DNA from: Candidatus Bathyarchaeia archaeon
Lineage (GTDB): Archaea; Thermoproteota; Bathyarchaeia; Bathyarchaeales; Bathycorpusculaceae
Length of the DNA stretch: 16,293 nt
Assembly: GCA_037481775.1 (NCBI GenBank)
Contig: JBBFKZ010000027.1
Coordinates: forward strand, 1 to 16,293
Reading direction: 5' to 3'
Translations under genes and position numbers: made by a program
Shown: positions 1,016 to 16,293 of the stretch, piece by piece
How the letters are laid out: every line of letters begins with the position of its first letter
Position numbering within the stretch: position 1 is the first letter of the stretch
The notes under the pieces: model-generated
What the model was told of the DNA's origin: nothing
What the model saw: the letters and a program-made list of their open reading frames with translations, nothing else
Databases searched by the model: none

Positions 1016-1951
1016 TCACAGGATTTCGCCTATTATTGTGGTTGGTTTGCGTATAACTGCTGTTAACTCGTCAACTTTTTCGCTGTTCAACGTAACAAGC
1101 ACCACTGTGGCGGGGCCTGCGGACTTGTTCAAGTCGATGTCGCCTGATTCCACAATTTTTAGTTGCCGCCCAACGCTGTGGGCCAGCATTCTTGCTGCGT
1201 AGCCGATGCCATAAGTGCCTACGGGAATAATATCGTGGACAAAGCTTTTCTGTGAAAGTTGAATTACACTCTTGAGATCGGCGATTTCGCCTTTAACTTC
1301 CGCTGGAATAACCTCCGCACCAATCCGTGGCTTGCCAACAGCGACTATCACATCGCCTGGATGCGTCTTCCCAAGCCTTAGTTCTTCATCGTTTGCAAAG
1401 CCAATTACTGTTATCCCTGCACCTGTCTGCGCGGTTTCAAAGTTGTCCTCAGTGTTCTCGAGCAAAACCTGATTTGGATCAAGCCCGAGAACTCTTGATT
1501 CGCTTCTTACGCCCTCTATAATTTCGTGGCCTGTAGGCTCCCTTTCCACGCTAAGCGTGGCTGATATGAGTAACGGATATGCGCCTGTAGCCGCAACATC
1601 CATCAAGGCAACTCTTGCGAGAAACTTGCCTAGGACGTACCCTTTAACCTTCACGTGATCCATCGGCTTCGGGCCGACGCTGCCGGAGGATGTGGAGCCT
1701 GCTACTATAGCGTGGCCTGTGGGCACTTTCAAAATTGCCACATCGCCTCTTCGCATGTAGTCAATCTGCGCGGGTTTGACTTGGAATACCAAGGGCCTCA
1801 GCATGGCTCCGATGTTTTCTACAAGATGCAGATACACCGTAAGTGCTTGCCGGATTACTTCCGATCTGCTGATGCCGTGCTTTTTGGCTAGCGCATCTAT
1901 GTTTGATGTTAGCTTATCCGATAAACGCACATTTATGATTTCCATGCTCAA
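1016..1951 (-). CDS. Ribbon-helix-helix (CopG/NikR-type) domain fused to a CblS/AIR-synthase-related (alpha-ribazole kinase-like) domain; putative regulator
   Basis: The N-terminus IINVRLSDKLTSNIDALAKKHGISRSEVIRQALTVYL is a classic RHH. The rest aligns with 2533..3297 (GPKPMD, LGKFLARVALM, KSAGPATVVL). Start is TTG 1951 or ATG 1945. Confidence 0.8.
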   Translation of the reverse strand: MSMEIINVRLSDKLTSNIDALAKKHGISRSEVIRQALTVYLHLVENIGAMLRPLVFQVKPAQIDYMRRGDVAILKVPTGHAIVAGSTSSGSVGPKPMDHVKVKGYVLGKFLARVALMDVAATGAYPLLISATLSVEREPTGHEIIEGVRSESRVLGLDPNQVLLENTEDNFETAQTGAGITVIGFANDEELRLGKTHPGDVIVAVGKPRIGAEVIPAEVKGEIADLKSVIQLSQKSFVHDIIPVGTYGIGYAARMLAHSVGRQLKIVESGDIDLNKSAGPATVVLVTLNSEKVDELTAVIRKPTTIIGEIL

Positions 1952-1956
1952 CCCTT

Positions 1957-1974
1957 GTATTACAATTGTAATAC
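1957..1974. promoter_or_regulatory. Perfect 18-bp palindrome GTATTACAATTGTAATAC, candidate RHH operator in a divergent promoter
   Basis: Self-complementary over 18 bp; lies 5 bp upstream of the RHH-fusion TTG start and just upstream of a TATA-like TTTTATG at ~1987. Confidence 0.75.
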
Positions 1975-2029
1975 GAATGGAAATGCTTTTATGATTTTCC
2001 TTTTTGCCCTTTAGAAAAAAGAGAGGAGA

Positions 2030-2536
2030 ATGATGAGCGAAAAAACAAGCGAAGCAGCAAAAGCCTCTGCAAGCTGGGTCATTGCTCGCATAGCCATTTT
2101 CTCCGCGCTAACAGTCATTGGTTCATTCATAAAGACCCCCAGCCCAATCCCCTCCGTTGCCTTCGACTCAAGCCCAGGATTCTTTGCAGCCTTATACTTT
2201 GGCGTGTTCGACGGCGCCTTAGTCTGCGGCATAGGTCACATCGCTACCTCAGTCATCAGCGGTTTCCCCTTAGGCGCTCTACATCTTCCCATTGCGCTGG
2301 GCATGGCGCTTTCAGGCGCAGCCATAGGCTTCGTAAACAAGCTAAACAAGAAATGGGGCTTCATCCCCGGTCTCATAGTTGGAGTAGCCATAAACACTGC
2401 TCTAGTGGTTTTAGCAGTGCCCGTCATAACGTGGGCTGGAGCAATCGCGTTCGCGCCTCTGCTGCTTTTAGGCGCATCCCTAAACGCCATCGTCGCTGCT
2501 ATCGTGTACGTGGCTTTGCGAGGTAAACTCCGTTGA
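2030..2536 (+). CDS. cblT: ECF transporter S component, CblT-like (alpha-ribazole uptake)
   Basis: Hydrophobic 168-aa multi-TM protein with IAIFSALTVIGSFIK..SVAFDSSPGFFAALYFG and GH..TS..SGFPL motifs; GAGGAG SD; coupled to a CblS-like gene. Confidence 0.7.
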   Translation: MMSEKTSEAAKASASWVIARIAIFSALTVIGSFIKTPSPIPSVAFDSSPGFFAALYFGVFDGALVCGIGHIATSVISGFPLGALHLPIALGMALSGAAIGFVNKLNKKWGFIPGLIVGVAINTALVVLAVPVITWAGAIAFAPLLLLGASLNAIVAAIVYVALRGKLR

Positions 2537-3297
2537 TTGGTTCCCCTGTTTTTACCTCCACAAACAGGGACCTCCTCATTTTTCAACTCGCCAACGGCGA
2601 CGCTCTAGTTGTTGGCTGCGACTCCTCAGGAGGCGTAGGCCCCAAACCTCTTGACAAAATCAAAGTAGACGGATACACTCTTGGAAAATTCATAGCCCGA
2701 GTAGCATTAATGGAAGTTCTCTCGGTTTCAGCAGCCCCTTTGTGCATAATTAATACGCTTAGTGTAGCGCCTGAACCGCTTGGCGCTGAAATTTTAAGGG
2801 GCGTACGTGCTGAGGCGAAAAGGGCAGGGTTGGATCCGCAGCTTGCAGTAACTGGTAGCACCGAGAAAAACTTCCAGGTTGAGCAGACAGGTATGGGTGT
2901 AACCGTGATAGGGCTAAGCCGAAAGGGCTTCTTGAAAATCGGCGCATCCCAGCCGGGGGACATAGTGGCTGCTGTAGGCGTTCCCTGCGTGGGAAACGAG
3001 GTTATCCCAGCGGAAAATATGCATATGATTGCTGATATAGAGGATCTTTTGAAGCTTCAGGCGCTGACATTTGTCCATGAGGTAATTCCTGTTGGGTCAA
3101 AGGGCATAGTGCATGAAATTAACGTTTTAGCTAAAGATTCAAAACTAACTGCCACGTTGGCAAACGAGGCAGCGGTTGATTTGAAGAAATCTGCGGGTCC
3201 CGCCACCGTTATTCTTGCCAGCCTTCCTATGTCTAAACTTGAAGAGCTTAAGGCCGCCGTTACCAAGCCTGTCAACGTTGTTGGCCAATTATTCTAA
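2533..3297 (+). CDS. cblS: CblS-like alpha-ribazole kinase (AIR synthase/PurM-related ATP-binding fold)
   Basis: VVGCDSSGGVGPKPLD, ARVALMEV, TGSTEKNF..QTGMGVTVIG, EVIPVGSKGI and DLKKSAGPAT motifs; 4-bp overlap with the S component. Confidence 0.7.
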   Translation: MIGSPVFTSTNRDLLIFQLANGDALVVGCDSSGGVGPKPLDKIKVDGYTLGKFIARVALMEVLSVSAAPLCIINTLSVAPEPLGAEILRGVRAEAKRAGLDPQLAVTGSTEKNFQVEQTGMGVTVIGLSRKGFLKIGASQPGDIVAAVGVPCVGNEVIPAENMHMIADIEDLLKLQALTFVHEVIPVGSKGIVHEINVLAKDSKLTATLANEAAVDLKKSAGPATVILASLPMSKLEELKAAVTKPVNVVGQLF

Positions 3298-3904: not shown

Positions 3905-4041
3905 TGTGCATCTGTCCTGTTTCCGTGGCTTATAGGCAATAAGCCCTTACATCTTAAAGGCTTCGGTTTCCTTCCGCAAGTTTCTTCAAAAAGGTAAATA
4001 TCTCGAAAAGGGCAATGGACATTTCACTGGAGAAATCCTGT

Positions 4042-4797
4042 TTGAAGCTGAGCCTATCTAACGGCATTTTTGCGCATCTACCCTTAGCCGAGAACATCGC
4101 CGCTGTCCGAAGACTTGGTTTCGAAAACTTGGAATTTAACATGAAAAGCGTGGAGAAAGAAGACGATGACTCCGTTTACGTTGCGAAAAAACTTATCGAA
4201 GCGCATGGGCTGAAGTGTTTAACTGTTCATGCGGCATGCCTACACGTTAAAGAGCAAAATGAAATACCTACGGCCGTTTACTATGGAAAAGTTTCAGCCG
4301 ATTTTGCGCATCAGCTCTCAGCGCCCGTGCTTGTCATACACTCAAACATCAACAGGCGATTGCCTGCAGACCTGCGGCAAAAGTTTTTGGCAGAAATCTT
4401 CAGCGAGCTGAGGCCTTACGCAGAGAAGCTGCGTCTTAAGCTGGCGTTGGAGAACCTTTCATACGCGTCAACAGGCTTCGGCAAGAACATTGATGAACTA
4501 GACGAAATTATCAGCGCAATAGGTGGCGACGCGTTAGGTGTAACCTTGGATTTTTGTCATGCCGAGGCTACAGGGCAGACAACGCGTCTGCTCAACAAAT
4601 ATCATGAACGCCTCTGCAACATTCACATTAGTAACCGCGCGCACACACCCTTCAAAGAAGAAACGCAGAACTTGAGAGCCTTTCTCAGCAAACTCAAAGA
4701 TTACGGCTATGACGGACCGCTAACCATAGAGTTAAACAGGAAATGCACAATTGAAGAAATTCAGAAAACAAAGGAAATAATTCAAAAGCTAATTTAA
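4042..4797 (+). CDS. Sugar phosphate isomerase/epimerase (xylose isomerase-like TIM barrel, AP endonuclease 2 family)
   Basis: LGFENLEF, LALENL, VTLDFCH, NIHISN and GYDGPLTIE metal-ligand pattern. Likely start TTG 4042 after GGAGA; the ORF is open from 4015. Confidence 0.82.
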   Translation: MKLSLSNGIFAHLPLAENIAAVRRLGFENLEFNMKSVEKEDDDSVYVAKKLIEAHGLKCLTVHAACLHVKEQNEIPTAVYYGKVSADFAHQLSAPVLVIHSNINRRLPADLRQKFLAEIFSELRPYAEKLRLKLALENLSYASTGFGKNIDELDEIISAIGGDALGVTLDFCHAEATGQTTRLLNKYHERLCNIHISNRAHTPFKEETQNLRAFLSKLKDYGYDGPLTIELNRKCTIEEIQKTKEIIQKLI

Positions 4798-5031: not shown

Positions 5032-5160
5032 CGTTCCACAGCAATAGCCTATAAAGCGGCCCAAACAAACACGATCAGAAAGAATACTCTTGTAACTTAC
5101 TGTACGCTTATTACAGCGACCTACTTTAAGCCAATTATTCCGACTGAAAAAGGATCAAAG

Positions 5161-5245
5161 CGCGGGGTGTGGGATTTGAACCCACGCGGCCTTTTGGGCC
5201 ACAGACTTAGCAGGCCTGCCCCCTACCAGGCTAGGGCAACCCCGC
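5161..5245 (-). tRNA. tRNA-Ser (GCT)
   Basis: Minus strand has a GCGGGGT/ACCCCGC acceptor, G discriminator, anticodon arm CAGGC-CTGCTAA-GTCTG, long variable arm GGCC-CAAAA-GGCC and T-arm GTGGGTTCAAATCCCAC. No intron and no encoded CCA. Confidence 0.95.
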
Positions 5246-7815: not shown

Positions 7816-9171
7816 TTATTGTTTTGTTGCTGCATGTGTTTCTCCTCGGATTTCTTTTAGTAGCTCTTGTTTTAGGGCTATGCTGAGCTGGTGTAGTTGG
7901 CGTTCTTCTAGTTGTTCGCGGCTGATAACAGTTGCGTTCGGGCGAGCTAAGGCTTCTTTGGTTAAGATTTCTTCGGGGTTTAATCCCCAGGCGCGGATGA
8001 TTTCTTTGAGCGCGGCGATTTTGCTGACCCGCGTCTTTGGTCTGATGCTTAGGGCTGCTGCCGAGTAAATGCCTCTGAGGTATTCTATGCCTTTCATCTG
8101 GATGTCATGGTAGGTGCTTATGGTGTGACCCATCATGTATTCAATGTAGTCTGTAGGCATGCCGAGCGCGGCGAGTTGGGTTCGGAAGAATTTGCGTATG
8201 CTGTGGACGCGGAGGTCGTAGAGTCTGCCTAGGGATTTTTGTGGGATTAAGCCTGCTTTTTGGTAGAGCTCGTGGACTAGGCTGTGTACGGCTTGGGTTG
8301 TTAGGGGCACTGGCCTGCGTAGTTGCATGTTTCTTAGGAGTGGGGTTTCGTCATGGATGTTTTCTGGTGGGATTTTGTCGGTGCCTTGGCGTCTGGCTTG
8401 CAGATACAGCCTAAGGTAATCAGCTGCTTCTTGACCGATGAAAGTGTCGTAGTCGTGGTATTTGCCTTTGGTGATTTCTGCTTCAACGTGGACGTGGATG
8501 GGCACTATGCCTTTCTCGAGGTCGCGTTTGACATGGCGGTATCGGAGCTTTACAAGCGTGCCTGTGCGGAAACCGCCTAAGGCGAGCATGCTAATTATGG
8601 TTTTGGTGCGTATGTCTGCCATGTCGATTATGGTTGCGAGTTCTTCAGGTGTGGGTGCGCGGTCTTTGTAGACGCTACGTTTAGGCAGGCTGTAGGCGAG
8701 TTCGAGTTTTAAGCCGTTGCATCTGAAGAGCGCTTTGACGCCTTTTATGTGGTTGCTGACGGTGCCTGGCGCTAGATCTTCGGCTTGGAGTTCGCCTACG
8801 AAGTCGTCAAGTAGTCGGTTGTATTTGGCTATGGCTTTGGGGTTGGCGTCTCCGTCTATGTCGGTGCAGTTTCTGATGAGTTGGTCGGGTTGGGTGTTGA
8901 GCCATTTGCAGAAGCGGTAAACACCGTAGAGGTATTGATAGAGAGTTCCTGAGCTTGCGGTTCTATGTCGCAGGAGGTGTTTGGCGAGTTGTAGGGTTGA
9001 CTCGTTGCTGAAGGCGAAGGGTACTAGTGCGGGCATTTTCCAGCTTAGGCTGTTGATTATGTATTGTTGGAGTTTTTCTTCGGCTGCTGATTGCGGTTCT
9101 GGAAGCTGGAGTGCTATTGGGATTTTGAGTTTTCGTCCGAGGGGGCTGTGGGTTATGGTCACTGCCTGCAA
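7816..9171 (-). CDS. Tyrosine recombinase / integrase, intact
   Basis: Catalytic set GFRTG (R), ITKGK (K), HSIR (HxxR), YMMGH (H), STYH (Y); N-terminal SAM-like core-binding region. Confidence 0.93.
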   Translation of the reverse strand: MQAVTITHSPLGRKLKIPIALQLPEPQSAAEEKLQQYIINSLSWKMPALVPFAFSNESTLQLAKHLLRHRTASSGTLYQYLYGVYRFCKWLNTQPDQLIRNCTDIDGDANPKAIAKYNRLLDDFVGELQAEDLAPGTVSNHIKGVKALFRCNGLKLELAYSLPKRSVYKDRAPTPEELATIIDMADIRTKTIISMLALGGFRTGTLVKLRYRHVKRDLEKGIVPIHVHVEAEITKGKYHDYDTFIGQEAADYLRLYLQARRQGTDKIPPENIHDETPLLRNMQLRRPVPLTTQAVHSLVHELYQKAGLIPQKSLGRLYDLRVHSIRKFFRTQLAALGMPTDYIEYMMGHTISTYHDIQMKGIEYLRGIYSAAALSIRPKTRVSKIAALKEIIRAWGLNPEEILTKEALARPNATVISREQLEERQLHQLSIALKQELLKEIRGETHAATKQ

Positions 9172-9539
9172 TGCGTTTGCTCCTGGCTGGTGTTTGGTTG
9201 AGTTTTTCGCTTCTTTGGCTGAAGCGCATACTCGCCTCTAACTATGGTGTCTGGGAAATTTAAATGCCCGTTTGAAGTTTTTTGTAATGGTAGCTCATGG
9301 AGTTCGAGGATGCAGCTTTTGAGGATGATTAAGCCGCTGCCTGAGCCGCTGGGGATTTGAGCGTCAGGGATTGTCCTGTCGTGTTCGATGAGCATTATTT
9401 CGTCGGTTTGTTTGGTAAGCCAGCCTATTGTCTCGCGTTCTACGGCTTCCTCTATGGGCTGCTGGATGTTCTTGTAGAGAACGTGATCCTTGTAGCGCAC
9501 GTAAACGGCAGAACCCAAAGAAAAAGCAGGAGAGGACAT
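9159..9539 (-). CDS. Hypothetical protein (small beta-rich domain), coupled to the integrase
   Basis: VYVRYKDHVLY..ERETIGWL..MLIEHD..GLIILKSCILE; overlaps the integrase start by 13 bp. Confidence 0.65.
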   Translation of the reverse strand: MSSPAFSLGSAVYVRYKDHVLYKNIQQPIEEAVERETIGWLTKQTDEIMLIEHDRTIPDAQIPSGSGSGLIILKSCILELHELPLQKTSNGHLNFPDTIVRGEYALQPKKRKTQPNTSQEQTHCRQ

Positions 9540-9552
9540 TGGGCTTCACGCT

Positions 9553-9795
9553 TTATTTGAAGAAGGCTTCGTCTCGTATGTTTTCGCTGACGCGGATGAA
9601 TCTGCGTTTTTTACAGAAAGACAGTATGCGGGTTAGTTCTGGGTCGTCTGCGCGTTCAAACTCTCTCCTGAAGCCCAACTTGCCCGTGGAGACGCGGACT
9701 TCAATTTTTCCGTCGCAGTCCAGAATCTGGTAGAAGCCCAATTTCTCCCCAGCATACTCTTCCAAGACTTCCCATTCTTCGACGAGATTAACCAA
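9553..9795 (-). CDS. Hypothetical protein of the element
   Basis: Likely TTG start at 9795 after an AGGTGA SD (ORF open from 9861); co-oriented and tightly packed with downstream genes. Confidence 0.6.
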   Translation of the reverse strand: MVNLVEEWEVLEEYAGEKLGFYQILDCDGKIEVRVSTGKLGFRREFERADDPELTRILSFCKKRRFIRVSENIRDEAFFK

Positions 9796-9907
9796 TTTGT
9801 TTTCACCTTGAAGGTCTTGCAGGCTGAGAATAAAAACTATCCATCGTCGCAAAGACATCATGTCTTTCAGGGTACCCGCAAAGACACGTATCTAAATTAG
9901 AGCTATT

Positions 9908-10285
9908 TTATGACAGCGCAGCAATGAGCAAGTATAGTTGCTCGTCTTTGGCTGTTTCAAGGAAGGCGTCCATGTTTTTCTCGTCGAGTTTGAGCGCTGC
10001 TTTTCCCCTAGGCGTCAACGCATACAGTTCAGAGTCCCAACCTGGTTGCGTAGGTCTAGTTCCTTTTTGATTTATCCAACGTTGCCGTTCGAGTGTTTGC
10101 ATGCGCCTGTAGACGGTTTTGCGCTCAGTGTGCCTAAAACCCTTGATTGTTCTAACCAAAAGCCACACGTCATAAGAGATCAATGCGCCTTTTTGATCGA
10201 GGATTTTGAGTATGACGCGGTTTAGGCGGGCTTCTCTGCCACTGAACACCTTAAGCCTCGTGCCCTTGCCTTTGTTCCGCGTCAA
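9908..10285 (-). CDS. Winged helix-turn-helix DNA-binding protein (PadR/MarR-like)
   Basis: VILKILD..ISYDVW..KTVYRRMQTLERQRWI..LYALTPRG pattern; GGAGG SD before the TTG start. Confidence 0.75.
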   Translation of the reverse strand: MTRNKGKGTRLKVFSGREARLNRVILKILDQKGALISYDVWLLVRTIKGFRHTERKTVYRRMQTLERQRWINQKGTRPTQPGWDSELYALTPRGKAALKLDEKNMDAFLETAKDEQLYLLIAALS

Positions 10286-10617
10286 AGTTCGCTTCCTCCA
10301 ACGCTGAAAGCAAAAACTAGGGATTTTTGGAACCGCCTTATCACATTAATGCCGCTGTTTTCTGGTGTTTTGTCTGCGGCAAAAAGTTTCTACAGGAGAA
10401 AAAATCACGGGAAAATTTTTCTGGAGACCCTTATGTTTACAAAATTGACACGTTTATGTAAAAAAGAGCAGGTGATTTGCAGTTTCTTGGCGTGTTTTGA
10501 CGGGGTGATTTCTTCGGGTAGAAACATTTTTCCCATAGGCATTTCTACGGGCGAAAACCTAAGGGCGCAAGTTTTGCGGGGGCGTTTTTTCTCAAAAGAT
10601 TAGATTCAGATGGTCAA

Positions 10618-10854
10618 TTATTCGATATGTTTGTTTCTTATGAGGGTTATGTTTATGATTTCTTGCTCTGGTGTTTCTCTGGCTGCGAAGTCTATGCTAA
10701 AATTCTTGTGCATGTGCGGTTCGATTTTTTCGTTAAGCCTCGTTGGGAAGTCTATGGAATAACGTTTGTAACGGTACTCCTGAGTTCTCTTGTAACGCTT
10801 CTTCATCCAACGGACTTGAAACTTAACCAACTCTACTAATCTCCAAAGTAGCAT
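10618..10854 (-). CDS. Small basic protein, possibly AbrB/SpoVT-like DNA-binding
   Basis: Lys/Arg-rich; the YKRYSIDFPTRLNEKI beta-turn-helix pattern resembles AbrB-type folds. Start uncertain. Confidence 0.5.
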   Translation of the reverse strand: MLLWRLVELVKFQVRWMKKRYKRTQEYRYKRYSIDFPTRLNEKIEPHMHKNFSIDFAARETPEQEIINITLIRNKHIE

Positions 10855-10968
10855 TTTCGAGGAGGTGGTTCTTTCCCAAGCCTGAGTTCAATGTTCTTAT
10901 TCTTGGACTTTGAGTAGGAGTTGAACCAGTGTTAAAGGTCAAGGTGTTGGCTGTGAATTGCCATTTTC

Positions 10969-11253
10969 TCATGTAACGTGCTTAGGTGTTTTCTTGCTTC
11001 TTATTCGATTTATGAGGCGCAATGCTCCAACAGCAGCAATAGCTATGAAAGCAGCTAATCCTATCCATTGAATTGCCCAAAGTATTTGATCTAACAAAGG
11101 TTCTGGTTTAGGGATTGGCATGGGGGTTGGTTCTTGCGATGTTTGTTCAGGGAAGAGAATGTAACTCATTCCTACAAGCAGAAAAGCTAGCGCTACAGCA
11201 AGGACTGCCGCTGCCACCATTGTCATTTTTTGTCCAATCAAGGTTTCACGCAC
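10969..11253 (-). CDS. Small two-TM membrane protein with a Pro-rich loop
   Basis: Two hydrophobic helices flanking PTPMPIPKPEP and a basic C-tail; preceded by an operator copy and TTAAATA. Start uncertain. Confidence 0.6.
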   Translation of the reverse strand: MRETLIGQKMTMVAAAVLAVALAFLLVGMSYILFPEQTSQEPTPMPIPKPEPLLDQILWAIQWIGLAAFIAIAAVGALRLINRIRSKKTPKHVT

Positions 11254-11287
11254 TATCCGCTATTCTTACGTTCGAGGTCTGTTATTT

Positions 11288-11328
11288 AATACTATATTTC
11301 TGTACAGGGTGTACTAAATATTTGTACA
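11288..11328 (-). promoter_or_regulatory. Tandem operator, divergent copy facing 10969..11253
   Basis: Minus strand: TGTACAA-ATATT-TAGTACA-ccc-TGTACAG-AAATA-TAGTATT running into a TTAAATA box. Confidence 0.6.
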
Positions 11329-11404
11329 TCTTCTTTGAAGTACCTTTGAATAGAATAAGTTTTAATTGACGCCCCCCCCCATTTAATTAGATTAGGCGCT
11401 GGAT

Positions 11405-11827
11405 TTGAGTGACAGAGAATCCAAGGACATCCTTAAGGGAACAACGCTTGAAATCTACCGTTTATTATTAAAAACCAATAAACCGCTAGGAATTAGAGAG
11501 ATCCAAAGAGCCTTGAACTTGAGCAGCCCATCCCAAGCTCAATATCATCTTAATAAACTTGAGGAAGCTGGTCTGCTAAAAAGGGAAATGGGCAATTACG
11601 TAATAAACAAGGTTCTCTTGGAAAACTGCGTAAGAATCAGCCGATTCCTCATTCCAAGATACCTCTTTTACTCCATATTCGCCATCGCAATCTTACTAAT
11701 TGAGCTTATCCTTCTCAGACCAGCAGTTCTCACCCGCGAATATTTCTTCTTCACGGCTGCAACGTTAATATTTGTTTTAATCTTCTGCTATGAAACTGCA
11801 AAGGTTTGGCTTAAAGGGAGCCTATAG
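11405..11827 (+). CDS. Membrane-anchored winged-helix transcription regulator (N-terminal wHTH + two C-terminal TM helices)
   Basis: LEIYRLLL..PLGIREIQRALNLSSPSQAQYHLNKLEEAGLL (ArsR/LexA-like wHTH), then YLFYSIFAIAILLIELILL and YFFFTAATLIFVLIFCY. Confidence 0.82.
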   Translation: MSDRESKDILKGTTLEIYRLLLKTNKPLGIREIQRALNLSSPSQAQYHLNKLEEAGLLKREMGNYVINKVLLENCVRISRFLIPRYLFYSIFAIAILLIELILLRPAVLTREYFFFTAATLIFVLIFCYETAKVWLKGSL

Positions 11828-11875
11828 CAAACCACTTTTTCAGCAAAACTGTAAATTTCAAGCCAGCCAGTAATC

Positions 11876-11915
11876 TGTCCTAAACATTAGTACAGGTGTC
11901 CTAAAGTGTAGAGCT
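11876..11915 (+). promoter_or_regulatory. Tandem operator copy
   Basis: TGTCCTA-AACAT-TAGTACA-gg-TGTCCTA-AAGTG-TAGAGCT running into a TAAATA box. Confidence 0.75.
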
Positions 11916-11981
11916 AAATATTCGTATCTATTAAGATAGAGACGCAAGACAAATAGTCTTGACGGAGACGAGAAGCATGAA
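11876..11981 (+). repeat. Duplicated promoter/leader block, copy 1 (copy 2 at 15219..15324)
   Basis: 11917..11981 is identical to 15260..15324 (65 bp, offset 3343); the upstream operator part is near-identical. Confidence 0.92.
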
Positions 11982-12828
11982 GCTTAAAGCCACGGCAATT
12001 GGTGCTCTCTTGCTTCTTAGCTTACTTGTTATCTCAACAGTGCAATCTATTGGGGTAGGTACTGTTAGCGCATACCATGGCGCTGGGATCTTCTGCCCAA
12101 ACAACTATATACCAGATCAATGGCCTTGGGACACTCCAGATGAGGTATCATTTTCGACTACATGCTGCTGGTACATTTATGCTTACCTCTTTTACCATTA
12201 CTACCCAGGACCAGTCGGTTATGCGTACGGTGATCCTTTTGACAACGATCCCATTGTCACGCCCAATACATACATGGACTATCTTGATTATTTGGAAGAC
12301 AATTCCGACGCGGTAACGGTTTTTTCAAAAGGGCATTGTACTCCTTGGGGGTATGGCTACCTATACCGCCGCCTACTTTGCACCATTGATGGCACGTACG
12401 CTCGAGATTCTATAGAGATTTATCCGCATACTGATCAGTTTAAATGCCGTTTTAATTTTATTTGGCATTGTGGTACCACCAATAGTTATCCTTATTGGCC
12501 GCCTTTCCCACCTGATGGACCCCCCTCGATGCCATTGGCATTTACCCACAATTTGGGTATGACTGAATATGGCTATAGCGGTTCGTGCGTCTTTGCCGGA
12601 TGGGACTATGCCTCGCCTCAGTTCTTTAATGTCATTCCAGATCACTATCCTTGGCAATGGGGACAATTAGCAGTCGGAGTCTTCTATTATATGCACTACA
12701 ATTACTGGAGTCTTGGCTATACTCTCAATTATCTATCAAACTTGATTTACGGTGTCAACTTTAACCAAAGCCCACTTTATAACGATTTGATGGTTTTGGG
12801 CAACATGGGTATGACTTTGAATTACTAA
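11977..12828 (+). CDS. Secreted Tyr/Trp-rich protein, putative His-Cys (clan CD, caspase/gingipain-like) peptidase; paralog 1
   Basis: Signal peptide MKLKATAIGALLLLSLL; motifs VTVFSKGH, FNFIWHCGT, FAGWDYASPQF and VLGN. ATG 11977 follows GGAG; alternative TTG at 11959. Confidence 0.6.
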   Translation: MKLKATAIGALLLLSLLVISTVQSIGVGTVSAYHGAGIFCPNNYIPDQWPWDTPDEVSFSTTCCWYIYAYLFYHYYPGPVGYAYGDPFDNDPIVTPNTYMDYLDYLEDNSDAVTVFSKGHCTPWGYGYLYRRLLCTIDGTYARDSIEIYPHTDQFKCRFNFIWHCGTTNSYPYWPPFPPDGPPSMPLAFTHNLGMTEYGYSGSCVFAGWDYASPQFFNVIPDHYPWQWGQLAVGVFYYMHYNYWSLGYTLNYLSNLIYGVNFNQSPLYNDLMVLGNMGMTLNY

Positions 12829-12848
12829 AAAGGAGTGAATAACAAGAA

Positions 12849-14012
12849 ATGAAGCAGGTAGAAAAATTGGTTTGCGCGGTCTTTCTTATTGCAATCTTCA
12901 CACAGCTTGGAATCATTTCTACTGTGCAGTCAGCTTTTACGGAATCTGAGGAAAAAGCAGTAGCCTTCATAGAAAATGTGCTGCCAATCGACAGCTCACA
13001 ATATAATATTACACTTAGAAATTACGGTGTGCCAGAACTGCCAGACATAGGTTACTACAAGCAAAGTAATGTCAAACAAGAGATTCTGACATATTCATTG
13101 GTGTCAAAAAACAGCACACTCGATGTGATTTGCACCATCAGCAATAATGTTTTGACCATCTGCAATATGTATGCCGTAAAGGGATCGGTTATTAGCGATC
13201 GGCAATACAGTAATCTATTGGATGCCGTTAAAGGTTTTCTTGAGAAATACCAAGCCTACTCTAAAATGGATTCAACAGAAATGATAAATATGCTATCAAC
13301 TGTTGATCCTACTAAAAACGCAACTATAACATCAGGCACCCTCAAGCTTACTGTAACCCACCAAGACTTATCTGGCACATGGTTTGGTGACACTGTTGAC
13401 TTTCGTTGGGTGCAAACTTTCAACGGCTGTGACTACCTGGCAGTAGATCTTGTCTTTCGCGACGGTGTCTTCTCAAACCTTATCGACCACCGTCAGCTGT
13501 ATTCAATAGGCAACACCGCGGTGAACATTTCTAAAGAGCAAGCCGTGAAAATCGCGATGGAATACATAAAGAACTACTCATACAAAATAGCAGAGGATGT
13601 TTGGATAAGCGATTTTAACGTCACTGAGGATCGAACGGTTGCAAACTTGGTTCCAACTGTAAGAGAGTCCAATGTTTTATATCCCTACTGGAGCGTTACA
13701 CTCTACCTTAACCAGACGTACCCTGGCAGCGTCACCTCCCTTCTGCTAGGAATCTGGGCTGACTCAGGAGAAGTATTCTTCTGCCACTATCAAGCATATG
13801 GCGGTAGTGACTTAATATCAGACAGAAATTCAGGCTACATAGCATCAGACGGCAACTCAGGCTCCGAACCACCCACAACATCACCCTCGCCGTCATCCCA
13901 AGAGACCAATGGGACATCGATAGACCTCAGCATGGTAGCCATAATAGCGGTTGCAACAATAGCAATTGCAGTAACAACAGTCACATTGATAGTCAAAAAA
14001 AGAAGCAAGTAG
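12849..14012 (+). CDS. Cell-surface protein: signal peptide, PepSY-like domain, S/T/P linker, C-terminal TM anchor
   Basis: ISKEQAVKIAMEYIK...YPYWSVTL...GIWADSGEV resembles PepSY; PPTTSPSPSS linker, TM helix, KKRSK tail; AGGAG SD. Confidence 0.7.
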   Translation: MKQVEKLVCAVFLIAIFTQLGIISTVQSAFTESEEKAVAFIENVLPIDSSQYNITLRNYGVPELPDIGYYKQSNVKQEILTYSLVSKNSTLDVICTISNNVLTICNMYAVKGSVISDRQYSNLLDAVKGFLEKYQAYSKMDSTEMINMLSTVDPTKNATITSGTLKLTVTHQDLSGTWFGDTVDFRWVQTFNGCDYLAVDLVFRDGVFSNLIDHRQLYSIGNTAVNISKEQAVKIAMEYIKNYSYKIAEDVWISDFNVTEDRTVANLVPTVRESNVLYPYWSVTLYLNQTYPGSVTSLLLGIWADSGEVFFCHYQAYGGSDLISDRNSGYIASDGNSGSEPPTTSPSPSSQETNGTSIDLSMVAIIAVATIAIAVTTVTLIVKKRSK

Positions 14013-14027
14013 ACCAATCACTTCCAT

Positions 14028-14040
14028 CCTTTTTTATTTT
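14028..14040 (+). terminator. Oligo-T archaeal terminator-like tract
   Basis: CTTTTTTTATTTT 15 bp after the stop of 12849..14012. Confidence 0.45.
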
Positions 14041-14114
14041 ACAGGTTCTATTCAAAGTAGAAATCGAATTTTGCACTGCATACCTTGTAAACACCAAAGC
14101 GATTGAAAGGGAAG

Positions 14115-14154
14115 TGTCCTAGTGTTTAGTACAGGTGTCCTAAAGTGTAGAAAT
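14115..14154 (+). promoter_or_regulatory. Tandem operator copy
   Basis: TGTCCTA-GTGTT-TAGTACA-gg-TGTCCTA-AAGTG-TAGAAAT upstream of a non-paralogous gene. Confidence 0.75.
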
Positions 14155-14185
14155 AAGTAATTCTTGTTTGGTAAGATTAGTAGAA

Positions 14186-15148
14186 ATGGGAGGTGAAATA
14201 ACGGTTAGTGGGAAAAGTGCTTACTGCTTGGCTTCTGTACTCCTTAGCTTAACGATGCTTTGCTCAATGATGCTTACGGTAGCAGCCCAGACGAATAACC
14301 AGATGTCTGCTATTGGATCATGGCGGCCTCCAAAGAATTTTGTTGATCCGGTTACCTTGAAAATTCAAGAATTCAGATCGCAAGGGTTAAATGATGAAGA
14401 AATAACGGCAAAGCTTGCGGAGCTAGGGATGGGCTGGTACCCGGAGACTGGTGCAACGTGGATGGGAAGAGTGTTGACTCCTGAAGAACTTGCTGAGATG
14501 CCAATTAGAGCGCCAGTTAAAGCTCCCTTAGACGAAAATGCAGTTCTATCGACCGGCAGAGCCTCGTGTATGCGGACTAATTATGCTTCCTGGACTGGTG
14601 TTGCCTCCGAAGTAGTCTCTGGTTCTATGAGTGTCAGTTCAGGACAAACACGGTACCACTATTTGTGCGTGCAGTTGGGAAACTTGGATAGCGGAACGAA
14701 CTGGGTAGAAACAGTGCTCACGCACAATTACGGTGAAACCTACAAGTGGTATACTTACGACTCGGATGAGGGTGGTGGTATGGTATATTACATGGATAAA
14801 AACACGCCGATAACAGTAGCTGATACTTACGTTATTATGTTGGATGGCACGCAAGACGGTGGTGGTTGGCATTATGATGTTTGGATAAACTATCAATGGG
14901 TCAGGCGTGGACACTTGTCAAATCTTTGGGTTCAAGCAGGTTTCCAGAAAGAAGTTTATAGTGACAGCGGACAATTCACGAATGATGCTTCGCATGCGGT
15001 ATTCTACCGAAACTGGTTGCACAATGATCAAGGATGGCCTTACTGGACAAGTGCTGTGAGTACGTGGTGGTACACAACTGCGCCAGTGCGGGAAACTCAC
15101 TCAACGGGTGCTGTTAGCTACCGCTGGGAGACATGGGTGCAGAACTAG
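14186..15148 (+). CDS. Secreted beta-rich protein, possible neprosin/glutamic-peptidase-like with N-terminal pro-region
   Basis: Signal-like N-terminus, ~90-aa pro-like region, then an aromatic beta-rich domain with TNWVETVL and AGFQKEVY. Start uncertain (TTG 14168 or ATG 14186). Confidence 0.5.
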   Translation: MGGEITVSGKSAYCLASVLLSLTMLCSMMLTVAAQTNNQMSAIGSWRPPKNFVDPVTLKIQEFRSQGLNDEEITAKLAELGMGWYPETGATWMGRVLTPEELAEMPIRAPVKAPLDENAVLSTGRASCMRTNYASWTGVASEVVSGSMSVSSGQTRYHYLCVQLGNLDSGTNWVETVLTHNYGETYKWYTYDSDEGGGMVYYMDKNTPITVADTYVIMLDGTQDGGGWHYDVWINYQWVRRGHLSNLWVQAGFQKEVYSDSGQFTNDASHAVFYRNWLHNDQGWPYWTSAVSTWWYTTAPVRETHSTGAVSYRWETWVQN

Positions 15149-15218
15149 CAACGCGAAAGTTGCTTATCTTCATTCCAGACGGCCTCTTGGCTTCAAGTGG
15201 CAAATTTAAACGTTCAAC

Positions 15219-15324
15219 TGTCCTAGTGTTTAGTACACTTGTCCTAAAGTGTAGAAATTAATATTCGTATCTATTAAGATAGAGACGCAAGACAAATAGT
15301 CTTGACGGAGACGAGAAGCATGAA
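15219..15324 (+). repeat. Duplicated promoter/leader block, copy 2, including the tandem operator 15219..15258
   Basis: TGTCCTA-GTGTT-TAGTACA-ct-TGTCCTA-AAGTG-TAGAAAT, then 65 bp identical to 11917..11981. Confidence 0.92.
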
Positions 15325-16225
15325 ACCAAAAACCATAACGGTTGGTGCTCTACTGCTTCTAAGCCTACTATTTTTATCGGCGCCACAGCTATTCGGAGTG
15401 AAAATAGCTAAAGCAGCCAATGCTGGCGTCATCTACGGTCCCAACTATCATATAGAATACCTTGATCTTCCCGGGGAAGAACAGCTCACCAGAGATGTCT
15501 GTACGTACATGATGAACATGTTTGTATCTTATGGATACAATTACGGCTGGCTATACAAATGTGTTGACAGTGCGGCAACAAGATCGGCGTACGGTAGTAA
15601 CGCCTACTATGCTGAAACGCACTACAGCGCTGCAACAGTATTCACTAAAGGACACGCCTCAGAGTATAAATGCAATCCGAATGGACCAAAACATCACTAT
15701 TTAATGGACACTAACGGCTTGCACGTGGAAGATGATTATATATGGCCTAACACGCCGTATGGTCGACATCGATTTGTTTGCACATGGCATTGCGGCACAA
15801 CAATGGATTACCCTGGCACAATTTGTCCATACTGCGGTGGTCGGACATCGCTTCCTTACGCTTGGACTCACAGCAACACTATGAACCTCGAAGCCTATAC
15901 ATCATCGACTGGTAATTACGTCTACATAGGACATGAAGGGTACTCGCCACAATTTCTAAATCCAACTGGCTGGGGGAGCTACAATCACGCTCATTACGTC
16001 TACTACCTCTACTTGTACCTTCTACAGTATCATATGAACGTGCGCGACGCTGCGAGCTGGGCAGCATATTACACTTTCGGAAACTATTATTTGCCAGCAA
16101 CCCAGTTGTATACGCTGCATTGGGTTGACCCACCAGACCCACCTCCACCAAACCCGCCATTTCCAGGTTTTTGGAGCAGGATGCACATCTTCGGCAACGG
16201 AAACTTGGGATTACCAGGGTATTAA
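15320..16225 (+). CDS. Secreted Tyr-rich protein, putative His-Cys (clan CD-like) peptidase; paralog 2
   Basis: Signal peptide; ATVFTKGH, FVCTWHCGT, SLPYAWTH, YIGHEGYSPQF and IFGN motifs shared with 11977..12828. Confidence 0.6.
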   Translation: MKPKTITVGALLLLSLLFLSAPQLFGVKIAKAANAGVIYGPNYHIEYLDLPGEEQLTRDVCTYMMNMFVSYGYNYGWLYKCVDSAATRSAYGSNAYYAETHYSAATVFTKGHASEYKCNPNGPKHHYLMDTNGLHVEDDYIWPNTPYGRHRFVCTWHCGTTMDYPGTICPYCGGRTSLPYAWTHSNTMNLEAYTSSTGNYVYIGHEGYSPQFLNPTGWGSYNHAHYVYYLYLYLLQYHMNVRDAASWAAYYTFGNYYLPATQLYTLHWVDPPDPPPPNPPFPGFWSRMHIFGNGNLGLPGY

Positions 16226-16240
16226 AGGAGCGAATAACAA

Positions 16241-16293
16241 ATGAGAAAACTTGTAACAAAAGTTCGCGGGCTTTTGATTCTTGCCGCAATTCT
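16241..16293 (+). CDS. 5' end of a signal-peptide-bearing gene, positional counterpart of 12849..14012
   Basis: AAAGGAGCGAATAACAA-ATG mirrors AAAGGAGTGAATAACAAGAA-ATG; reads MRKLVTKVRGLLILAAI to the window edge. Confidence 0.65.
   Translation, partial: MRKLVTKVRGLLILAAI

Follow-up and report, generated by a model that had tools for sequence, protein, structure and literature searches.

A ribbon-helix-helix protein fused to a CblS-like paralogue as a candidate regulator of cobamide lower-ligand salvage in Bathyarchaeia

The divergent candidate regulator gene and the cblT-cblS-like operon

The window, a stretch of 16,293 nucleotides (nt) comprising contig JBBFKZ010000027.1 (C27) of a Bathyarchaeia archaeon, belongs to an archaeal genome of 1.82 Mb that is 96.7% complete. 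It harbours a two-gene operon resembling cblT-cblS and, transcribed divergently from it, a gene whose product joins a ribbon-helix-helix (RHH) domain to a paralogue of the kinase-like protein encoded by the operon. This protein, termed here the fusion, has close homologues labelled Bathyarchaeia or Bathyarchaeota. CblS and CblT were reportedly characterised by Gray and Escalante-Semerena in 2010 as the alpha-ribazole salvage system of Firmicutes. The divergent gene, at 1016-1945 on the minus strand, fairly probably encodes a one-component regulator that senses a ligand, controls its own gene, governs the salvage of cobamide lower ligands and is itself derived from CblS. The features on which this interpretation depends are listed below, with protein lengths and positions in amino acids (aa) and the basis of each assignment in brackets.

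1016..1945, minus strand: regulator gene, 309 aa (open reading frame list; Pfam RHH_1 and AIRS; 309 aa homologues; AlphaFold2 model)
1817..1945, minus strand: RHH DNA-binding domain, aa 1-43, an N-terminal strand and then two helices (PF01402; model)
1019..1768, minus strand: putative sensor domain, aa 60-309, a PurM/AIRS-fold CblS paralogue with altered active-site residues (BLASTP; Foldseek; residue tallies)
1957..1974: predicted operator, the perfect 18 bp palindrome GTATTACAATTGTAATAC (sequence; conserved in relatives)
1979..1994: putative shared TFB-recognition element (BRE) and TATA element (read from the sequence; the module recurs in relatives)
2030..2536, plus strand: cblT-like S-component of an energy-coupling factor (ECF) transporter, 168 aa (PF12822, E 4.3e-11)
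2533..3297, plus strand: cblS-like kinase, 254 aa (PF00586, 29.1 bits)

The open reading frame of the regulator as listed spans 1016..1951 on the minus strand and starts at a TTG at 1951. Because its homologues are 309 aa long and begin ME(I/V)INVRL, translation probably begins at the ATG at 1945 instead of this TTG, and the divergent intergenic region is therefore 1946-2029. On the other side of that region, the cblT-like gene is preceded by a Shine-Dalgarno-like GGAG at 2025-2028 and overlaps the cblS-like gene by 4 nt; the product of the latter retains the family motifs CDS, ME, GSTEKN and PVGSKG.

Two Pfam models match the fusion above their cut-offs: RHH_1 (PF01402), with 34.1 bits over aa 6-41 (E 2.3e-8; the cut-off is 20.5), which places the N-terminus within that family, and AIRS (PF00586), with 27.4 bits over aa 70-156 (the cut-off is 24). 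When compared using BLASTP, the fusion and the product of 2533-3297 align without gaps at 47% identity across 242 aa (E 4e-78), a span covering nearly the whole of the 254 aa kinase-like protein. These results bear out the first-pass annotation, which had described an RHH domain joined to a full-length paralogue of the kinase-like gene with three of its motifs changed; the translations read exactly as it gave them, with GCDSSGG in the kinase corresponding to GSTSSGS in the fusion, TGSTEKN to LENTEDN and PVGSKGI to PVGTYGI.

An AlphaFold2 model of the fusion, based on a 61-row alignment, has a mean predicted local distance difference test score (pLDDT) of 92.3, with helices at residues 10-23 and 27-43, a linker of lower confidence at aa 41-60 (pLDDT 65-70) and then a two-domain body. 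As modelled, this body is a two-domain PurM fold of the PurM/AIRS superfamily, having been matched by Foldseek to SelD, PurL, PurM, HypE and ThiL (E 7e-14 to 1e-11, TM 0.5-0.6), with no CblS structure among the matches. A model of two copies reached an ipSAE of 0.85, compared to 0.00 for the best control, with at least 88% of contacts common to the runs and a partner pLDDT of at least 87; in calibration, the mark that it passed was reached by 20 of 30 solved pairs and one of 23 single chains. The modelled interface comprises RHH residues 1-10 and 12-42 of both copies together with the N-domain sheet, such that the RHH is predicted to be of the usual strand-helix-helix form, pairing into a dimer through its N-terminal strands. 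The homodimer result may nevertheless reflect likeness to known structures, because PurM-family dimers have been solved.

The kinase-like family is widespread, an exhaustive HMMER search finding 514 representatives of 50% identity clusters at E ≤ 0.001, and 410 at E ≤ 1e-10, which are named in their sources only as 'AIR synthase related', 'selenophosphate synthetase-related' or 'hypothetical'. The window's kinase-like gene had no match in NCBIfam or in a search of Protein Data Bank sequences, and the annotation defining CblS was not found in the 12 of 14 supplementary files of Shelton et al. that were covered. The genes at 2030-3297 are identified as cblT-cblS by genomic context, rather than by alignment to a characterised CblS. 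In 17 Firmicute loci, examined among 80 retained of 430 confirmed, an ECF S-component gene lies directly upstream of the kinase homologue in 13; it does not in two, and crude gene calls permit no decision in a further two. An orthologous S-component occupies the same position in archaeal loci. Ten of the 17 lie among cob/cbi genes, with neighbours including CobU, CobS, a CobC-like phosphatase, proteins of the CbiA/CobQ type, CbiC, CbiD, CbiG, CbiJ, CbiK, CobA, CobT and a PduX-like GHMP kinase, and one additional locus (L061) is the only one to have a cobalamin riboswitch directly upstream. Two other Bathyarchaeia (G134 and G128) have an operon consisting of CobS, a CobY-like::ECF-S protein and a stand-alone kinase. 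The tie between the kinase family and cobamide genes on which the first-pass annotation relied is thereby upheld, and agrees with published accounts, which place cblT-cblS mostly in Firmicutes and inside cbi-cob-hem clusters (PMC6461909, PMC5064896). The window's own genome encodes two copies of CobS, two of CbiB and a weak CobT-like match beside CobS, and therefore possesses nucleotide-loop assembly.

A side observation comes from two other Bathyarchaeia, in which L029:4803-5936 and L030:5276-6409 each encode, between CobS and the cblS homologue, a single 377 aa protein that joins a CobY-like nucleotidyltransferase (NTP_transf_3) to an ECF S-component. Such a combination of enzyme and transporter is unusual.

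Altered active-site positions and the history of the fused clade

Residues were tallied, in kinase numbering, across 392 aligned sequences comprising 258 stand-alone proteins, 125 fused proteins and nine fragments. Asp30 is present in 252 of the 258 stand-alone rows; the fused rows have threonine at this position in 124 of 125 cases and isoleucine in the other. Similarly, Cys29 (240 of 258 stand-alone rows) is serine in 118 of the 125 fused rows, Glu61 (253 of 258) is aspartate in 124, Gly108 (229 of 258) is glutamate in 120, Ser109 (242 of 258) is asparagine in 121 and Ser189 (255 of 258) is threonine in 117. The window's fusion has Thr for Asp30, Asp for Glu61, Glu-Asn for Gly108-Ser109 and Thr for Ser189, hence departing from the CblS family at each of these near-invariant residues; judged by its sequence, the fused domain is a descendant of a CblS-like family and not a typical member of it. 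The position of the aspartate is occupied by T, T, I, T, T and S in the six fused representatives of 50% identity clusters. Glu111, Asn113, Gly191 and the SAGPAT segment are retained in stand-alone and fused rows alike. In a weak match to the thiamine-monophosphate kinase profile (E 0.23), the counterpart of Asp30 is the Asp of the 'CADT' motif of ThiL and that of Glu61 is the Asp of 'NLSD', two ThiL residues that we take to be metal binders.

The first-pass annotation had proposed that the motif changes should be conserved in relatives, and the altered residues do recur across the whole of the fused clade (117-124 of 125 rows for the main positions). Because the changed residues are themselves conserved, the fused pocket looks re-purposed rather than decayed. 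This argues for an altered function, short of proof of lost catalysis, for which the signs are the loss of one aspartate and the alteration of neighbouring residues.

With the fusion as query, 1169 matches were obtained at E ≤ 0.001, the best 120 of which are all 304-344 aa long and at least 71% identical. Six fused clusters are found among the 50% cluster representatives (the window's, P0248, P0249, P0257, P0265 and P0286), with members labelled Asgard/Wukongarchaeota, Methylarchaceae, Methanophagales and Methanomethylicota. A midpoint-rooted FastTree phylogeny of 172 rows was constructed from the representatives of at least 225 aa, supplemented with the window, archaeal and 15 Firmicute sequences. 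In this tree, a branch with 97% Shimodaira-Hasegawa-like support separates the 13 fused rows from the rest. They adjoin a well-supported group of 21 stand-alone kinases from archaea, among them the window's own, the join itself having only 72% support. This topology is consistent with a single duplication and fusion event within an archaeal lineage, though midpoint rooting proves no direction. RHH and CblS-like fusions, for which the first-pass annotation had suggested looking in archaeal genomes, are a conserved family that constitutes a single clade extending over several archaeal phyla.

The association of the fusion with a stand-alone kinase is less regular. In a phylum-wide sample of 401 genomes, 25 had matches and 16 carried the fusion, of which 14 were full length and two were cut by contig ends. 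A stand-alone paralogue was detected in five of the 16 (G000, G118, G448, G086 and G094), in each case 0.6-0.7 kb from the fusion and on the opposite strand; G064, from a class-level sample, is a sixth genome with a divergent cblT-cblS. No stand-alone paralogue was detected with this query in the other 11 fusion-bearing genomes, which are 90-100% complete, although absence is not proven. The predicted conservation of the divergent arrangement therefore holds for these six genomes and was not seen in the 11. The further suggestion of a regulator dedicated to the cblT-cblS operon did not survive, as the operator precedes other genes in those genomes; because 11 of the 16 show no stand-alone CblS, the fusion's core role cannot be the control of cblS itself.

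The predicted operator, its putative promoter module and its targets in relatives

The palindrome in the divergent intergenic region, GTATTAC-N4-GTAATAC, consists of two 7 bp GTAWTAC boxes that are 11 bp apart from centre to centre, and is predicted, as a set of short repeated boxes, to be the binding site of the RHH domain. It is effectively unique in its genome: no other match was found in the genome at up to three mismatches, and when the N4 centre was specified, the sole other genomic match at up to two mismatches was no better than a reversed-pattern control. A position weight matrix built only from relatives' sites (n=18) scores the window's operator at 27.1 bits, the next best site in the genome scoring 15.1 and the maxima of five shuffles ranging from 15.8 to 22.5; no second operator in the window's genome rose above this shuffle range.

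The same element lies 12-16 nt before the start of the fusion gene in the window and in 11 relatives (G118, G082, G032, G098, G094, G086, G064, G413, G448, G465 and G419). These copies have GTAWTAC boxes (with the variant GTAGTG) separated by 4 nt of variable sequence. The intergenic stretch of G437 ends in a similar but cut-off site that was not counted, and contig ends truncate the loci of G148 and G494. The first-pass annotation had pointed to the region shared by the fusion and cblT as the place to look for regulator binding, and it does contain a conserved element in the form of this recurring palindrome.

On the plus strand, the putative BRE/TATA element GGAAATGC TTTTATGA lies 4 nt from the operator; on the opposite strand, it can be read as GGAAAA TCATAAAA, extending to about position 2000. 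The AT-rich core at 1987-1994, flanked on both strands by GGAAA, could serve as a promoter in both directions. The layout is the same before every target: the operator, 4-6 nt, GRAAA and a TTTTAT-like element, the last two of which we read as a putative BRE and TATA box. On the regulator's own side, a TATA-like ATAAAA is found 7-12 nt upstream of the operator. Archaeal promoters are as a rule repressed from sites downstream of the TATA box and can be activated from sites upstream of the BRE. Negative autoregulation is the simplest reading for the regulator gene, because the operator sits between the TATA-like element and the start codon. For cblT-cblS, both occlusion of the BRE and activation would suit the geometry.

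Beyond its own gene, the module of operator and BRE/TATA precedes cblT in the window, G118, G086 and G064. In five further genomes, where no cblTS was detected, the best additional operator-like site (with 0-1 mismatches in G032, G419, G437 and G413, and two in G082) carries the same module and precedes, by 57-85 nt, the gene for a membrane protein of approximately 195-205 aa. These genes are as follows.

L135:1235-1852, L137:1575-2159, L138:828-1418, L139:1585-2172 and L140:655-1233: multi-pass membrane proteins of about 200 aa

Members of this membrane protein family are 49-51% identical to that of G032, and that of G082 is 79% identical to that of G437. They have no Pfam match, and the hypothesis that they are diverged CblT proteins was rejected, as hhalign gave a probability of 6.6% in addition to the lack of a Pfam assignment. 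Features from a language model make them QueT- or ECF S-component-like (0.90-0.93), which serves as a lead only. The protein was not found in the window's genome, and in a sample of 61 genera of the taxonomic family, each represented by one genome, it turned up in G032 (genus g3) and G082 (genus g6) alone, both of which carry the fusion and show no stand-alone paralogue. It is a candidate for a new cobamide-precursor uptake protein.

Other arrangements are found as well. The fusion of G450 is 40% identical to the window's and belongs to another family; in this genome the operator separates the fusion gene from that of an ECF S-component, behind which a PfkB-family kinase is encoded, and the same genes adjoin the fusion gene of G300. 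In both G413 and G437, a gene for a B12-binding radical SAM protein is transcribed divergently from the fusion gene. A second perfect operator in G098 (L134:5617-7678) precedes a gene resembling alcohol dehydrogenase (ADH) and trpD, for anthranilate phosphoribosyltransferase (TIGR01245, 250.9 bits). TrpD is represented in the window's genome by no more than a 34% identical homologue, located elsewhere (C25). Comparison of these loci suggests that the regulator is a family-wide, autoregulated factor whose targets are interchangeable uptake and activation modules, and not a dedicated regulator of cblS. With this amendment, the model of the first-pass annotation holds in its main lines.

Proposed mechanism, alternatives and relation to known regulators

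In the mechanism that we favour, the sensor domain would have arisen from a CblS kinase by one duplication and fusion, keeping the fold and most pocket residues but losing the conserved aspartate. Two chains are modelled as pairing via their RHH domains and the PurM-type sheet; one RHH dimer would read one 7 bp GTAWTAC box, such that two dimers would fill the 18 bp operator at 1957-1974. Occupancy of the operator would repress the regulator's own promoter and, 4 nt upstream of the cblT-cblS BRE/TATA, would either occlude or recruit TFB and TBP. The sensor is envisaged as binding, without turnover, what the kinase consumes or makes (alpha-ribazole or alpha-ribazole phosphate, possibly together with a nucleotide), and ligand binding as altering DNA occupancy, thereby setting the expression of lower-ligand uptake and activation.

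A fuller version is offered more tentatively, as somewhat less than an even bet. It would make the fusion the first protein transcription factor for cobamide lower-ligand homeostasis in Archaea, a pseudo-kinase that senses alpha-ribazole or its phosphate through a silenced CblS, represses itself and acts from upstream of the BRE/TATA of interchangeable modules (cblTS, an S-component with PfkB, or the transporter of about 200 aa). Spread over Bathyarchaeia, Asgard, Methanophagales and Methanomethylicota, such a regulator would stand in for the B12 riboswitch.

Several points weigh against the interpretation of the fusion as a cobamide salvage regulator with a silenced kinase domain. The favoured mechanism is computational throughout, drawing on sequence comparison and modelling. 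The 125 fused rows are mostly close relatives (at least 71% identical), and hence not independent, and the alignment making Asp30 the counterpart of the ThiL aspartate is weak at E 0.23. Residual or altered catalysis in the fusion is possible, because Glu111, Asn113, Gly191 and SAGPAT are kept and the change of Glu61 to Asp yields the residue found in ThiL. The lack of a detected paralogue in 11 of 16 genomes, and the lack of a clear operator before the fusion genes of G300 and G450 themselves, also sit poorly with it. The family is equated with experimentally characterised CblS through genomic context, and the ADH-like and TrpD targets of G098 have no evident cobamide role.

Some of these observations would be explained were the fusion a bifunctional kinase and regulator in the manner of RbkR, the archaeal riboflavin kinase/regulator: the fused domain would phosphorylate an imported riboside, with substrate and product tuning DNA binding, and would be the only kinase wherever CblS is absent. 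The 11 genomes without a detected stand-alone paralogue suit this proposal, as do the strong conservation of the altered residues in the fused clade and the retention of Glu111, Asn113 and SAGPAT. It is nevertheless unlikely, given that the near-invariant Asp30 (252 of 258) is threonine in 124 of 125 fused rows, including those from genomes without CblS, and that G450 and G300, both without CblS, have a PfkB-family kinase beside the S-component, which suggests that another enzyme acts as the kinase.

We likewise doubt that the fusion regulates a different salvage pathway, with S-component, kinase and sensor all handling some other riboside or vitamin precursor. Under this hypothesis the CblS name, given without direct alignment to a characterised CblS and matched by no NCBIfam name, would be misplaced, and the relatives' targets (the QueT-like membrane protein, a lead only; the PfkB kinase; the ADH-TrpD pair) and the single cobalamin riboswitch directly upstream among 17 Firmicute loci would be readily accommodated. 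Set against this are the linkage of the kinase to CobS and CobY-like genes in Bathyarchaeia and to cob/cbi genes in ten of the 17 Firmicute loci, the B12-binding radical SAM gene found divergent to the fusion in two genomes, and the published location of cblS-cblT inside cbi-cob-hem clusters (PMC5064896).

That the RHH protein only autoregulates, or is an antitoxin-like module whose adjacency to cblT-cblS is inherited synteny of no regulatory meaning, is very improbable: the domain has weak NCBIfam matches to the antitoxin families VapB and RelB (E 4e-4 to 8e-3, all below cut-off) and in family f1 the gene is fixed beside those for pantoate kinase and PPAT with or without cblTS, but in five genomes the operator keeps a constant distance to the BRE/TATA downstream of it at unlinked, mutually orthologous genes, it also stands before ECF-S and PfkB in a distant lineage, and no toxin-like partner gene is present.

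Considered as a cobamide salvage regulator derived from CblS, the fusion can be compared with several known systems. NikR and similar RHH regulators have an N-terminal RHH dimer that reads short boxes and a C-terminal sensor which binds the ligand and determines the oligomeric state, and they bind palindromic operators. The sensor of NikR is ACT-like and binds metal, and its half-sites lie far apart, whereas the fusion has a PurM-fold domain and boxes 11 bp apart. The archaeal thiamine regulator ThiR, reportedly described by Rodionov et al. in the Journal of Bacteriology in 2017, is said to combine a ThiN-like sensor that lacks catalytic residues with a DNA-binding domain, and to control thiamine transporters and biosynthesis genes; both domains are of other folds than those of the fusion, and the vitamin is another. 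To our knowledge, B12 riboswitches have not been described in Archaea, where the control of cobamide uptake and remodelling is largely unknown. In bacteria RNA riboswitches fill the role of local switch for a salvage operon, which is most likely that of the present regulator.

RbkR is described as a DNA-binding domain joined to a pathway kinase domain, with a regulon of vitamin transporters and its own gene (PMC5397151). The likeness to the fusion, an archaeal one-component vitamin regulator in a riboswitch's place, is one of logic only. RbkR is a catalytically active combination of a winged helix-turn-helix (HTH) and a CTP-dependent riboflavin kinase fold, whereas the fusion combines an RHH with a PurM/AIRS fold lacking the conserved aspartate and is linked to cobamide lower-ligand salvage, placing it outside the RbkR type. 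The genes at 2030-3297 share with Firmicute cblT and cblS the two-gene layout of an ECF S-component followed by an AIRS-like kinase of about 250 aa, with homologues in cob/cbi clusters (PMC6461909, PMC5064896); by contrast, the host here is an archaeon and a protein regulator, paralogous to the kinase, is proposed instead of a riboswitch. No published description of an RHH and CblS-like regulator was found in the full-text literature, most subscription journals lying outside its coverage. One candidate, PMC9976878, was rejected, as AIR synthase, ribbon-helix-helix and regulator appear there in unrelated contexts.

What would be new relative to RbkR and ThiR is the pairing of an RHH with a PurM fold, the vitamin and the operator. 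It would be a third clear case, after those two, of an archaeal vitamin regulator originating from a pathway enzyme, with the duplication still visible next door, and the pseudo-enzyme and enzyme, at 47% identity, may represent a natural instance of a kinase pocket becoming a sensor. A regulator with a defined 18 bp operator also offers a directly testable entry to archaeal cobamide control, and the operator points to uncharacterised parts of salvage, namely the membrane protein family of about 200 aa and the PfkB kinase, which would replace cblT and cblS.

The remaining genes of the window are of varied character. Convergent to the regulator gene, 3-990 on the plus strand encodes pantoate kinase and PPAT, enzymes of archaeal coenzyme A synthesis, an arrangement conserved across family f1 (L021, L023, L024, L027, L142, L145 and L146); in relatives, these are preceded by a further ECF S-component of approximately 250 aa, a candidate pantoate or pantothenate transporter. 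A functional link between the regulator and these enzymes was considered on the basis of the synteny in family f1 and rejected, there being no operator on that side and the genes being convergent, and the association is treated as one of neighbourhood only.

Two genes after cblS, 4015-4797 on the plus strand encodes a xylose-isomerase-like TIM-barrel protein (AP_endonuc_2, E 2.5e-29). Its best NCBIfam match is IolO, and its match to CbiR, a cobamide-remodelling phosphodiesterase, is below threshold (30.9 bits against a cut-off of 105). The AP_endonuc_2 gene is also a neighbour in G118 and directly follows the cblS homologue in Natroniella (L079), making a link to cobamide remodelling possible. 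Further along the contig, a tRNA-Ser(GCT) is found at 5160-5245 and a tyrosine integrase (PF00589, phrog_1) at 7816-9171. From the integrase to the contig end at 16293 there are small regulators (PadR-like and HTH_20) and open reading frames that match neither Pfam nor PHROG, and the G+C content is lower, at 0.40-0.46; the region 7816-16293 is probably an integrated mobile element or provirus.

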